Source of the DNA: Candidatus Bathyarchaeia archaeon
GTDB lineage: Archaea; Thermoproteota; Bathyarchaeia; 40CM-2-53-6
Direction: 5' to 3'
DNA length: 64,000 nucleotides
Assembly: GCA_049513715.1 (NCBI GenBank)
Contig: JBEKVV010000001.1
Span: forward strand, 320,001 to 384,000
This document shows positions 28,045-53,894 of this stretch, piece by piece; the stretch's first letter is position 1; each line of letters opens with the position of its first letter. The notes below the pieces were generated by a model. The model searched no databases and was not told the DNA's origin. It worked only from the letters and a program-made list of their open reading frames with translations. Position numbers and translations under genes: made by a program.

Positions 28045-28372
28045 TGGCGGTGGTAGCATCCCCAATGAATTGGCAGTCCTCGCCACCGCGGTTTCCTCAG
28101 AATCGTCTACACCCTGTGGTCCCATCAGCGCCTGGGCGCTCGCCTTACGACTGCTCTCTTCCGAGCCTCATCGGGTTCGACGATGAAGAGGTAAACCCTT
28201 CCCTTCAGAAGGGCTTCCTCCGACGCTGGCCCGGTGGGGCAGAGTATCATCGTTGACTCTGAAGGCCTACTGAGGTCCGGAGCTACCTCTTCCTCAGGTT
28301 AACGGGTCCCCGCGTATAGCCGATTTCGGGTCACAGGGAACGGCTGGCTCCCCGATCCTCCTACCACCGCCA
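28045..28372 (-). ncRNA. ffs: Archaeal SRP (7S) RNA
   Basis: 12-bp terminal helix TGGCGGTGGTAG/CTACCACCGCCA, Alu-like CCCTGTGACCCGAAATCGG, helix-8 motif AGGCTCGGAAGAGAGCAG, and a TTTATAT box about 25 nt upstream. Confidence 0.93.
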
Positions 28373-50238: not shown

Positions 50239-50365
50239 GGAGTCAGCAGCGGTCCGGGGCTCGCATGGCCTTTCGGAACACACTACTACCCGAATCGCCT
50301 GAGAGATTCACTTCCGTGTTCGGAATGGGAACGGGTCCTAGCTCTCAGCTATGGCCGCCAACTCC
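50239..50365 (-). rRNA. rrf: 5S rRNA (stand-alone)
   Basis: GGCGGCCATAG...ACCCGTTCCCATTCCGAACACGGAAGTGAA...; terminal helix GGAGTTGGCGG/CTGCTGACTCC. Confidence 0.96.
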
Positions 50366-51594: not shown

Positions 51595-51921
51595 TTGAGT
51601 GAAGTAAAAGGCGTCCCAGGTTTCGTATGTCCAAAGTGCAAGTGGTCCGGCGTTTTCCAAACTGGACCTTGTCCAAGCTGCCACAATTCCACCGTGGAGG
51701 AAACCTTGTTTTCCAATCGGGGAAAGATAGCCACGTTTACCGTGATTAGATATCCACCGACTGGTTTCGAGGGCGAAAGCCCCTACGTGGTCGGATTGAT
51801 AGATATTGAAAACGGCCCGAGAGTGATGGCAAGAATCATCGCGAAAACCGATGACGTTCAGATAGGCAAGTCAGTGTCTTTCTTAGGAGATTCTAAGGGC
51901 AGATTGGAGTTCACACTCTGA
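51595..51921 (+). CDS. DUF35 Zn-ribbon/OB-fold protein (thiolase partner)
   Basis: CPKC..CPSC, GKIATFTVI..PP.GF and PYVVGLI. Confidence 0.92.
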   Translation: MSEVKGVPGFVCPKCKWSGVFQTGPCPSCHNSTVEETLFSNRGKIATFTVIRYPPTGFEGESPYVVGLIDIENGPRVMARIIAKTDDVQIGKSVSFLGDSKGRLEFTL

Positions 51922-52217
51922 CTTGTCTCTTCACCGCCATGTGAATGAATTGTACACTCCTCGCAGTTAGATCTCTGTGAACTGACGAACCACGGAAGGA
52001 GCCTTTCTCAAGCCCTCTGGAGCGTGTGACCGCGGAGCATTGACATTAGCCATTCCGAATTCAAAAGATGCTTTGTCTTTCCAAATTGAGAGCGCGGCCG
52101 AAGCCAAAGCCAAGGCGGCCCAGAAAAAAGATGCCTAGCATATGTTATACACGAAGAGGAGGGTGAATACACTGGCAGGCTCCAGGCATAAACATCGACT
52201 CGGTTCCGGGTGGAGAT

Positions 52218-52443
52218 TGGTGGGGCCGAAGGGACTCTCCTGGTTCAGGGTGGAACCATTTTGAACCCTCGACTTCCGCCATGCCGTCATGTCTACGGGT
52301 TTCTTCGCTCCTGAAGTTCGTCATTCCGAACTGGTCCGCAAACCCGGAGGTTTGGTCTTCTGGAGCCCTTGGCGGGATCTTTCCCTGTCGTCATCCCTGG
52401 CTAGAGACCGCCGCTCAATCCGAATCATTGCGCCTACGGCCCC
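52218..52443 (-). tRNA. tRNA-Trp(CCA) with five introns (10/11, 28/29, 37/38, 45/46, 59/60) and encoded CCA
   Basis: Six exons (52434-52443, 52387-52405, 52360-52368, 52293-52300, 52260-52273, 52218-52234) join into a canonical 77-nt cloverleaf. Each junction pair forms a BHB-like motif. Confidence 0.87.
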
Positions 52444-52679
52444 ACACGGGTCGCGACAGGGCGGCCCCAACCACAGAGGCGTGGGAAGTTGCTATATGGA
52501 TTTTGGCCCATAGCCGCAGTTGATTTGTCACCTAGACGCCGCCGTGAGGCCAATGTTTTCGGTATGGCCAGCAGAGAGTTGTGCAGCGAAAACGGCGGTT
52601 GGCTTGCACCCACAAAGGCGCGCCGAGCGTCGCCGCCAACTAGTAATATCCGACCAACATCAAATCTATCCGAACAACG

Positions 52680-53894
52680 TTGATCAGGATAGGCCTGATT
52701 GGGAAAACCAACGCGGGCAAAACAACGTTTTTCAATGCAGCCACCCTGCTGAGTGCCCCGGTTTCAACGTACCCGTTCACCACGAAGAAGCCCAATATCG
52801 GGCAAGCCTACGTGCGCACGGTCTGCGTCTGCAAGGAACTTGGCGTCAGGGATAACCCGAAGAATTCAACGTGCATTGGCGGTGCACGCTTCATCCCCGT
52901 TCAACTGATCGACTTACCGGGACTGATCAAAGGCTCCTGGATGGGAAAGGGGTTGGGGTCCCAATTCCTCAGCGTAGCCTCCCAAGCGGATGCCCTCATT
53001 CACATCACCGACGCCTCTGGAAGCCTCGATGCGGACGGAAAACTGACGAAGCCGGGTATGGGAAACCCCGTATCCGATGTGTACGATATTGAGGAGGAGC
53101 TTGTCAGGTGGGTCTCCAAGAACATCGAAAAGACTCTCAAGAAGATGAGGAGGCACTCCAAGAAAGGTGCCTCGACCGTGAGTCTCCTTGAACGAGACCT
53201 AGCTGGCCTGAAGGTCACACCCGACCACATTGTCAAGGCTCTTGAACTAAACGGTCTCATGGATAAGGACCCGGGGAAGTGGAATCGTGATGACCTGTGG
53301 AACTTTGCGAAGAGTGTTAGGCAGATTTCAAAGCCAACCCTCATAATTGCCAATAAGATGGACTTGTCGCCGGCCGAAAGGAACTACGCGAATCTCGCGA
53401 AGGAGTTTGGCCAAGCTTTCGTTCTTCCGGCCTCCAGCGATGCAGAACTGGCGCTAAGGCGTGCGGAGCAGAAGGGTTACATACAATACCTGCCGGGCGA
53501 GGAAGTGTTCCGTGTGAAGGACAAAGAAAAGCTAACCGCTGATCAAAGGGAAGCGCTAACCTATGTTCAACAACGCGTCTTCTCGAAATGGATTCAAACT
53601 GGCGTACAATTCGCCATCAACACGACTGTGTTCAAGCTTATGGGCATGAACACGGTCTACCCCGTTGAGGACATTGAGAAACTCGCAGACAGGAAGGGCA
53701 ACGTGCTGCCCGATGTGTTCCTGGTCCCATACGATGCCACTGTCAAAGAGTTGGCCGCACAGGTTCACTCGGATTTGGCCAAGACAATGCTCTATGCGAT
53801 TGACGCGCGCGCCAAGATCAGGCTACCTGGTGATTATAAGTTGAAAGATCGTGATGTCGTGAAGATAGTCGCGGCCACCAAGGGAAAGGGCTAG
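52680..53894 (+). CDS. ychF: Obg-family ATPase/GTPase YchF (archaeal type)
   Basis: GKTNAGKTT, YPFTT, DLPGL, NKMD and a C-terminal TGS domain. Confidence 0.93.
   Translation: MIRIGLIGKTNAGKTTFFNAATLLSAPVSTYPFTTKKPNIGQAYVRTVCVCKELGVRDNPKNSTCIGGARFIPVQLIDLPGLIKGSWMGKGLGSQFLSVASQADALIHITDASGSLDADGKLTKPGMGNPVSDVYDIEEELVRWVSKNIEKTLKKMRRHSKKGASTVSLLERDLAGLKVTPDHIVKALELNGLMDKDPGKWNRDDLWNFAKSVRQISKPTLIIANKMDLSPAERNYANLAKEFGQAFVLPASSDAELALRRAEQKGYIQYLPGEEVFRVKDKEKLTADQREALTYVQQRVFSKWIQTGVQFAINTTVFKLMGMNTVYPVEDIEKLADRKGNVLPDVFLVPYDATVKELAAQVHSDLAKTMLYAIDARAKIRLPGDYKLKDRDVVKIVAATKGKG

Follow-up and report, generated by a model that had tools for sequence, protein, structure and literature searches.

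A tRNA-Trp gene very probably interrupted by five bulge-helix-bulge introns in an archaeon of Candidatus Bathyarchaeia

Organization of the tRNA-Trp gene

The DNA analyzed here is a stretch of 64,000 nt from a Candidatus Bathyarchaeia archaeon (assembly GCA_049513715.1, contig JBEKVV010000001.1, positions 320,001 to 384,000), which is called the window in the following. On its minus strand, at positions 52218 to 52443, it contains what is very probably a functional tRNA-Trp gene with the anticodon CCA, which is interrupted by five introns of the bulge-helix-bulge (BHB) type and would be matured along the pathway proposed below. That the five-intron gene is real follows from the comparison across 56 orthologous loci, in which the mature sequence is nearly invariant, the introns diverge, the helices of the splice motifs covary, and natural alleles lacking one or another intron exist. 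The first-pass annotation of the window, which was made from the letters of the sequence, had proposed such a gene, and the comparison bears this out.

The exon lengths given in that annotation (10, 19, 9, 8, 14 and 17 nt) and the intron lengths (28, 18, 59, 19 and 25 nt) were reproduced exactly. The gene has the following parts:

52218..52443, minus strand: tRNA-Trp gene, 226 nt, six exons and five introns
52434..52443, minus strand: exon 1, tRNA positions 1-10
52406..52433, minus strand: intron 1, 28 nt, inserted at 10/11, hBHBh' motif
52387..52405, minus strand: exon 2, positions 11-28
52369..52386, minus strand: intron 2, 18 nt, inserted at 28/29
52360..52368, minus strand: exon 3, positions 29-37, including the anticodon CCA
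52301..52359, minus strand: intron 3, 59 nt, at the canonical position 37/38, with a box C/D-like core
52293..52300, minus strand: exon 4, positions 38-45
52274..52292, minus strand: intron 4, 19 nt, inserted at 45/46, relaxed HBh' motif without outer helix
52260..52273, minus strand: exon 5, positions 46-59
52235..52259, minus strand: intron 5, 25 nt, inserted at 59/60 within the T loop, hBHBh' motif
52218..52234, minus strand: exon 6, positions 60-73 plus the encoded CCA

In standard numbering the intron sites are thus 10/11, 28/29, 37/38, 45/46 and 59/60, with a D loop of nine bases. When the exons were joined by a script, ARAGORN called the product tRNA-Trp(cca), in agreement with the canonical 77-nt tRNA that had been claimed. 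In the 77-mer, the acceptor stem comprises 7 bp and the anticodon and T stems comprise 5 bp each; the discriminator is A, and CCA is encoded. The identity elements of archaeal tRNA-Trp are G1-C72 and A73, and both are present in the spliced product. We also used a parser of our own, which is anchored on the T loop, the T stem, the encoded CCA and the 7-bp acceptor stem, and which allows interior jumps only at BHB-like intervals. It independently returned the identical five introns, and in the spliced product it identified the same cloverleaf arms as ARAGORN.

The first-pass annotation had also predicted that standard finders would miss the gene, and this was true for both programs used. Nowhere in the window did ARAGORN report a tRNA, with or without its intron option, and the raw locus also escaped the Rfam tRNA model at both the gathering and a permissive threshold. 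The permissive Rfam search of positions 52150-52520 yielded no tRNA or small RNA family, the single match being a chance one to a long non-coding RNA (E=9.4).

Conservation and natural intron loss in orthologous loci

The locus was matched in 60 of the 105 genomes of the order at E<=1e-12. Within the genus, 18 of the 22 other genomes had matches over the full length, with 83-91% identity. From the order, 63 loci were retrieved and seven were dropped, leaving 56 complete loci from 55 genomes. Six of the dropped loci were truncated at contig ends (L014, L017, L018, L019, L086, L094), and the seventh, L076, was a second match in genome G100 with a poor alignment (score 48) that does not represent a Trp gene. 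Slipped borders of intron 5 in L029, L077 and L084 were kept and treated as alignment artefacts, not as motif failures. Two further artefacts were kept uncounted, i.e., a forced CCA "intron" in L029, which has no encoded CCA, and the D-loop intron of L100, which was probably split wrongly.

In the spliced alignment, five introns were present in 42 loci, four in 13 loci, three in one locus, and six in none. The mature 74-mer was found in only 11 variants among the 56 loci, and it varies at 9 of its 74 positions, the T-stem changes being compensatory; this indicates purifying selection on the mature tRNA. Among the intron sequences hardly any two are alike, e.g., 42 distinct sequences were found among the 43 copies of intron 1. 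The central helix was nevertheless complete (4/4) in 43/43 loci for intron 1 and in 53/53 loci for intron 4. Intron 2 was present in 56/56 loci, with lengths from 16 to 91 nt and once located 3 nt further upstream; its central helix is 4/4 in 21 loci. Intron 3 was also present in 56/56 loci of the order and, in addition, in all 20 loci parsed at the level of the class. The inner helices covary, and the fourth pair of intron 5 may serve as an example (TA 13, CG 30, TG 4, GC 1, non-pairs 3).

Natural loss was seen for three of the introns. Intron 1 is absent from 13 of the 56 loci, and in six loci it is replaced by a different D-loop intron of 34-35 nt, so that the total is still five. Intron 4 is absent from L030, L091 and L092, where the flanking exons are contiguous, and intron 5 is absent from five loci (L031, L087-L090), which have an uninterrupted T arm. 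In the alleles without intron 1, 4 or 5 the exons abut exactly at the predicted junctions.

Beyond the order, 246 genomes of the class were sampled, and a match was found in 32 of them, which covered only exon 3, intron 3 and exon 4. Parsing of 20 further loci, of which 18 belong to other orders and two to sister genera of the same family, gave two to four introns, one parse being ambiguous.

Two observations were made beside the main comparison. Genome G012 (87% complete, 7% contamination) has two five-intron copies, L010 on contig C19 and L032 on contig C21, which differ in introns 1 and 5; they may stem from two strains that were binned together. Furthermore, the terminal CCA is encoded in most loci, and it is not gene-encoded in L029 (G034:C80), L083, L084, L102 and L103.

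Splice motifs and the predicted splicing endonuclease

A cut after the second base of a 3-nt bulge behind a 4-nt helix had been proposed for each intron, and this geometry was found at every site. Three mismatched central helices had also been claimed; introns 2, 3 and 5 indeed have three of four pairs, and introns 1 and 4 have all four. As a control, 200000 random genomic intervals with the length of the respective intron were drawn, and those that reached the same minima were counted:

Intron 1 motif: central helix 4/4, outer helix 2 bp, inner helix 3 bp; 29/200000 random intervals
Intron 2 motif: central helix 3/4, outer helix 1 bp, inner helix 3 bp; 649/200000 random intervals
Intron 3 motif: central helix 3/4, outer helix 5 bp (the anticodon stem, in the spliced context), inner helix 0; 1693/200000 random intervals
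Intron 4 motif: central helix 4/4, outer helix 0, inner helix 4 bp; 88/200000 random intervals
Intron 5 motif: central helix 3/4, outer helix 5 bp (the T stem), inner helix 6 bp; 1/200000 random intervals

Introns 1, 2 and 5 have the full hBHBh' motif, and introns 3 and 4 have relaxed motifs.

The first-pass annotation had reasoned that such a gene needs an endonuclease of relaxed specificity, and the gene content agrees with this. The genome encodes two EndA paralogues of 186 and 192 amino acids, each of which matches PF02778 and PF01974. Of the two, the 186-aa protein is the catalytic one, and it most closely resembles the alpha subunit of the Aeropyrum pernix heterotetramer (PDB 3P1Z_B, E=2.5e-41; 3AJV_B). 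Its residues K39/K41 align with K44/R46 of the Crenarchaea-specific loop of 3P1Z_B, i.e., the loop lysine is kept. According to PMC3241643, this loop and its lysine confer a broad substrate range on EndA. An enzyme of the (alpha-beta)2 type with a broad-specificity loop is therefore predicted, and this is supported by the protein comparison. RtcB, the RNase P RNA and fibrillarin are also encoded in the genome.

Introns 1 (52406-52433) and 4 (52274-52292) resemble one another. Both are preceded by the exon hexamer CCGTAG and have GGCGG directly ahead of their two final bases, and in L021 these final bases are the sole difference between them. This likeness suggests that one intron was copied between the two sites.

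The tRNA genes of the genome and the search for a second tRNA-Trp

The parser was also applied to the whole genome. In the reversed genome, which was used as null, it found 97 loci with a maximum score of 50.5, and loci of the genome census were used only above this value. The census yielded 37 loci above the null. Of these, 32 are compact (span <260 nt), and all 32 were accepted by ARAGORN with the same anticodon. One of the compact genes has no intron, six have one, 11 have two, seven have three, six have four, and one, tRNA-Trp, has five (mean 2.44). Examples from the interrupted set are C4:148380-148574, C1:172729-172880, C2:373349-373529, C2:230817-230967, C1:168876-169046 and C5:220117-220321.

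The remaining five loci above the null have ambiguous parses with five to seven introns, some of which are longer than 100 nt:

C4:128270-128714, ambiguous five-to-seven-intron locus
C1:124393-124746, ambiguous five-to-seven-intron locus
C3:93991-94436, ambiguous five-to-seven-intron locus
C6:28215-28680, ambiguous five-to-seven-intron locus
C3:286519-286836, ambiguous five-to-seven-intron locus

One of them could exceed five introns, and five is not claimed as the maximum of this genome.

A second copy of the tRNA-Trp locus was not found in its own genome, and in the census no other locus above the null carries the anticodon CCA. As far as found with this incomplete census, the locus is the only tRNA-Trp(CCA) gene of the genome. 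Two "Trp" calls of ARAGORN, at C4:137983-138097 and C9:7127-7260, were re-parsed as Arg(TCG) and Leu(GAG), respectively, and were rejected.

A copy of the acceptor strand in the leader

Upstream of the gene, a second copy of the 5' strand of the acceptor stem was found, together with two neighbouring elements:

52491..52499, minus strand: TATA-like box, a putative promoter element centred about 27 nt upstream of the leader copy
52462..52468, minus strand: leader copy of the acceptor 5' strand, 7/7 identical to tRNA positions 1-7, located 25 nt upstream of position 1
52444..52461, minus strand: leader spacer, in which 8 nt are complementary to the exon 2/intron 2 junction (52383-52390) within the genus

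The position of the leader copy fits the distance at which archaeal transcription is expected to start downstream of a TATA-like box, and the AT-rich relatives have a TATA-like box at an equal distance from their leader copy. The leader copy is likely to be the 5' end of the primary transcript. The minimum free energy (MFE) fold of the precursor from the window pairs the spacer with the exon 2/intron 2 junction, and in L014 and L016 one G fewer at the start of intron 2 is accompanied by one C fewer in the leader. This pairing might delay the removal of intron 2.

The leader copy co-occurs with early introns. In the genome under study, the first intron follows position 8 or 10 in five genes, i.e., those for Trp, Glu(CTC), Asn(GTT), Cys(GCA) and Leu(CAG), and all five carry a copy of their acceptor strand 12-25 nt upstream, four of them with 7/7 and one with 6/7 identities. 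The four genes in addition to tRNA-Trp, with the copy 12-22 nt upstream, are:

C2:230817-230967, Glu-CTC
C2:195038-195178, Asn-GTT
C1:746942-747087, Cys-GCA
C5:220117-220321, Leu-CAG

A 7/7 leader copy is absent from the remaining 27 parsed genes of the genome. Across the order, all 43 Trp loci with the 10/11 intron have a copy that can pair with the 3' acceptor strand at no fewer than six of the seven positions (7/7 in 32 loci), and none of the seven Trp loci without an early intron reaches a 7/7 copy.

The central helix of intron 1 uses tRNA bases 5-8, and introns after position 8 use bases 3-6. Because the central helices of early introns use acceptor bases, the splice motif competes with the acceptor stem. 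In the MFE folds of eight Trp precursors the 3' acceptor strand was paired with the leader copy over 7/7 positions in all eight cases, and the true 5' strand was left to the intron. Pairing of the 3' strand with the leader copy was also seen in 4/4 folds of the other early-intron genes. This preference is partly expected because two identical strands compete.

Based on co-occurrence and folding, we tentatively propose, with slightly less than even confidence, that the leader copy is a surrogate acceptor strand, which would hold the 3' end and free the true 5' strand for the splice motif. It would be a previously undescribed cis-acting device, and nothing like a surrogate leader strand was found in the literature searched. 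Such a device would explain how BHB introns could settle at sites that clash with the acceptor stem. It would also order the five-step splicing, with off-pathway products that include exon-containing RNA circles, and it would make the ordered folding of mutually exclusive splice motifs directly testable. It is a serious possibility, if somewhat on the doubtful side, that the leader copy is instead unrelated to splicing and is a promoter-proximal or initiator element, a leftover of intron insertion, or a signal for RNase P. The location at the expected transcription start would fit this explanation, as would the presence of the copy in six Trp loci with a D-loop intron, where the acceptor strand is outside the motif; and the evidence for a role in splicing comes from sequence and folding. 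However, in five different genes of the genome the copy tracks the gene's own acceptor stem, which is unexpected for a shared promoter element, and across the order copy positions 5-6 vary only from C to T, so that the pairing with G in the 3' strand is preserved.

Intron 3 as a putative box C/D guide

Unlike the other four introns, intron 3 is kept throughout the class, and its length in the relatives is 57-71 nt. By this comparison the intron is old and of class-wide occurrence. When 46 distinct sequences were aligned, a common order of elements emerged, i.e., a stretch antisense to the 3' junction and positions 38-43, a CNGA box, a short variable hairpin, a RATGANGA box and a 12-nt antisense stretch. 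In the window these elements are:

52339..52347, minus strand: putative D' guide, able to pair with the last two bases of the intron and with positions 38-42
52335..52338, minus strand: D'-like box, CNGA, which is CTGA in many relatives
52318..52325, minus strand: C'-like box, RATGANGA, with a perfect GATGATGA in L022, L025 and L026
52306..52317, minus strand: putative D guide of 12 nt, able to pair, except for an A-A mismatch, with positions 31-37 and the first three bases of the intron
52302..52305, minus strand: degenerate D-like box, xxGA, which is CTGA with the same spacing in L016 and GTGA in other orders

The C'-like and the D'-like box are conserved across the 46 sequences, and the terminal C and D boxes are degenerate. 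In the window, C39 and C34 lie opposite the bases located five positions upstream of the D' box and the D-like box, respectively. The guide spacing is identical where the box is CTGA or GTGA, i.e., in L016 and in other orders, and it is one base longer in many members of the order.

A box C/D guide in the intron of pre-tRNA-Trp is typical of Euryarchaeota. Intron 3 shares with the guide of Haloferax volcanii the canonical 37/38 position in tRNA-Trp and two antisense stretches, in which the fifth base upstream of D and D' faces positions 34 and 39. The Haloferax intron is needed to direct the methylation of C34 and U39 (PMC7714728). Compared with this intron of 103 nt, intron 3 is shorter, it has degenerate terminal boxes that overlap the splice sites and a C at position 39, and its guide function is putative. 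In view of the degenerate boxes and of the missing Rfam match, intron 3 is regarded as a possible homologue or analogue of the Haloferax guide.

Splicing order, RNA contigs and proposed pathway

The central helix of intron 4 and the outer helix of intron 3 both require bases 40-43. The central helix of intron 2 takes the D-stem bases 23-25 and splits the anticodon stem, and intron 1 needs the acceptor strand. For these reasons the five motifs cannot coexist, and intron 5 has the only motif free of conflict. The ordered splicing that had been suspected in the first-pass annotation is thus plausible from the competing helices, and RNA contigs with ends or junctions at the sites of introns 1 and 5, in which introns 2-4 are retained, point in the same direction.

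These contigs were obtained from four metatranscriptome runs, three of which, from three studies, gave one contig each, from relatives with 90-99% identity. The fourth run, X19, gave no contig; in addition, the flanks 51900-52240 and 52580-52900 were uncovered and no run showed an exon-exon joint, and none of these absences was used as evidence. The contig from X15 spans 52307-52559 and is unspliced. The contig from X17 is flanked by adapters on both sides; in the sense of the tRNA, its 5' end lies within 1 nt of the start of exon 2 and its 3' end in exon 5, and the insert may be a random fragment. The contig from X16 has 174 nt on 52259-52410 and runs from the start of intron 2 to exon 5, then through 25 nt of intron-1-family sequence and then into exon 2. 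Position 59 is thus joined to the first base of intron 1 (with an ambiguity of one base), and two predicted 5' splice sites are used. The contig is a circular permutation of the locus, which fits either an exon-containing circle (about 172 nt) or a product of trans-ligation that arose through EndA cleavage and RtcB joining while introns 2-4 were retained.

The following pathway is proposed. Transcription would start about 27 nt downstream of the TATA-like box, at the leader copy. The co-occurrence and the folds suggest that the leader copy then pairs with the 3' acceptor strand, and bases 5-8 would be freed for the BHB motif of intron 1. A heterotetrameric (alpha-beta)2 EndA would cut after the second bulge base, as indicated by the motifs, the gene content and, in part, the RNA contigs, and the exons would be joined by RtcB. 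Introns 1 and 5 would probably be cut early, with introns 3 and 4 competing for bases 40-43 and intron 2 competing with the D stem. By analogy with Haloferax, the core of intron 3 probably guides the 2'-O-methylation of C34 and C39 before it is removed. RNase P, the RNA gene of which is present, would remove the leader after the true acceptor stem has formed.

Weighing of alternative readings

Several points weigh against the functional five-intron gene and its proposed pathway. The acceptance by ARAGORN is weak evidence, since it extended to spurious parses. The tRNA census is incomplete, with 32-37 loci found versus about 46 expected, so that a second tRNA-Trp could be missed. Two splice sites are relaxed, as intron 3 has no inner helix at the 5' bulge and intron 4 has no outer helix. 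The RNA evidence consists of three contigs from relatives, and DNA carry-over in the libraries is possible. These assembled contigs, which cannot show joints of exons this short, revealed neither an exon-exon junction nor a mature tRNA or a circular intron, and the X15 contig extends about 90 nt upstream of the proposed transcription start. In intron 3 the terminal C/D boxes are degenerate, and Rfam matches nothing there.

The weakness of in-silico splicing would suit a chance resemblance, in which freely chosen deletions mimic a tRNA, or a decaying relic. With free choice of introns the parser builds "tRNAs" from unrelated DNA and from the reversed genome that ARAGORN accepts. On the genome itself it builds many spurious genes with five to eight, often long, introns, e.g., a seven-intron "Trp" at C4:61219-61583; some of these were also accepted, and many score below 50.5. 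Because the parser and ARAGORN accept such cases, splicing in silico is weak evidence when taken alone. The locus, however, scores 57.0 against the null maximum of 50.5, it is conserved in 60 of the 105 genomes of the order with near-invariant exons, diverging introns and covarying helices, and no other credible tRNA-Trp was found in this genome, which is rated 99.4% complete. The comparison of the orthologous loci, and not the folding, is decisive in excluding chance, and a chance product or a pseudogene is regarded as extremely improbable. It is improbable, too, that the gene has fewer than five introns and that one insertion is retained as an enlarged arm. The best candidates would be introns 4 (19 nt, in the variable region) and 2 (18 nt, at 28/29), since the former has only the relaxed HBh' motif and the latter a central helix of 3/4; the lack of exon-exon junctions in the RNA contigs is also compatible with a retained piece. 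Yet the helix of intron 4 with bases 40-43 is kept in 53/53 loci, and a retained piece would compete with the anticodon stem; moreover, three relatives lack intron 4 exactly at the predicted borders, and intron 2 keeps its motif over a length range of 16-91 nt.

The count could also be too low. If the upstream 7-nt copy were the first exon, the spacer and the second copy would form a sixth intron. This form was the second-best solution of the parser (52.5), with a 25-nt piece and a 4/4 helix formed by the palindromic GGCC of both copies. It would, however, replace the near-universal U8 by a C. In addition, the bases after the copy vary among the relatives (CA, TG, CC, TT), so that positions 7-8 would differ while the other 72 are nearly invariant. 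In the one frame worked through that preserves the product, at most 2/4 pairs can form, because a direct repeat cannot pair with itself. Based on C8, the variable positions 7-8 and this poor pairing, the six-intron form was rejected and is considered very improbable.

Comparison with known systems

The gene belongs to a known kind, i.e., tRNA genes with introns of the endonuclease type, and it is at the known numerical extreme, in a lineage not previously linked to it. The first-pass annotation had placed the gene in the frame of the Thermoproteales, with up to three introns per gene. This number matches the figure in print up to 2021, a maximum of three introns per archaeal tRNA gene (PMC4033280, PMC8450103), and it has since been surpassed by a report of five for Asgard archaea. 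The frame itself did not hold, as the organism belongs to Candidatus Bathyarchaeia and not to the Thermoproteales. In Pyrobaculum, Thermofilum and Caldivirga, multi-intron tRNA genes have a maximum of three introns per gene, and the richest genome has 1.54 per gene. The Bathyarchaeia genome, in contrast, has five introns in one gene and about 2.4 per gene over the 32 parsed genes, and it represents a mesophilic lineage of soil and peat. The DNA runs that contain the stretch are from peat and wetland metagenomes.

Introns are present in 92-95% of the tRNA genes of complete Asgard genomes (bioRxiv 10.1101/2023.11.21.568159), and 2.2 intervening sequences per gene with up to five in one gene were reported in a preprint of October 2026 (10.64898/2026.10.13.758758). 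In both groups most tRNA genes are interrupted, with 2.0-2.4 intervening sequences per gene and up to five, and annotators miss the D-arm insertions. In contrast to the present gene, the Asgard five-intron case is from a different phylum and is based on a census of lengths, and neither a leader copy nor a class-wide C/D-type intron is described in the covered parts of the Asgard sources. Literature searches for Bathyarchae* together with tRNA introns returned passing mentions only, and a search for "five introns" with tRNA and archaea returned nothing relevant. The five introns of tRNA-Trp equal the highest number reported for any tRNA gene and are backed here by the comparison of 56 loci instead of by one prediction.

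Two further systems share features with the gene. The nuclear tRNA genes of Cyanidioschyzon merolae contain up to three BHB-type introns with a preferred order of removal that was demonstrated by experiment, and its permuted genes have circular RNA intermediates (PMC3728597, PMC4090602). C. merolae is, however, a eukaryote, and the Bathyarchaeia circle (exons 2-5 and introns 1-4) looks like a by-product and not like an intermediate of maturation. In the split tRNAs of Nanoarchaeum equitans, sequences outside of the mature tRNA pair in the precursor and build the substrate of EndA (PMC4090602, PMC4033280), which resembles the proposed role of the leader. The N. equitans extras pair with one another in trans and form the BHB, whereas the Bathyarchaeia leader would replace the acceptor strand in cis.

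These results suggest that a Bathyarchaeia order of soil and peat joins the Thermoproteales and some Asgard families in extreme tRNA fragmentation. The tRNA counts and quality scores of such genomes are misleading because standard finders recover few of the genes; in the present, nearly complete genome only 18 matches to the Rfam tRNA model passed the cut-off. The presence or absence of introns among close relatives is a natural series for the study of intron gain and loss.

Other RNA genes of the window

Two further RNA genes were detected in the window. A 5S rRNA gene (50241-50362, minus strand, 83 bits) is located 1.9 kb from the tRNA-Trp gene on the same strand, and the gene for an archaeal signal recognition particle RNA (28050-28367, minus strand, 160 bits) lies farther along the window.

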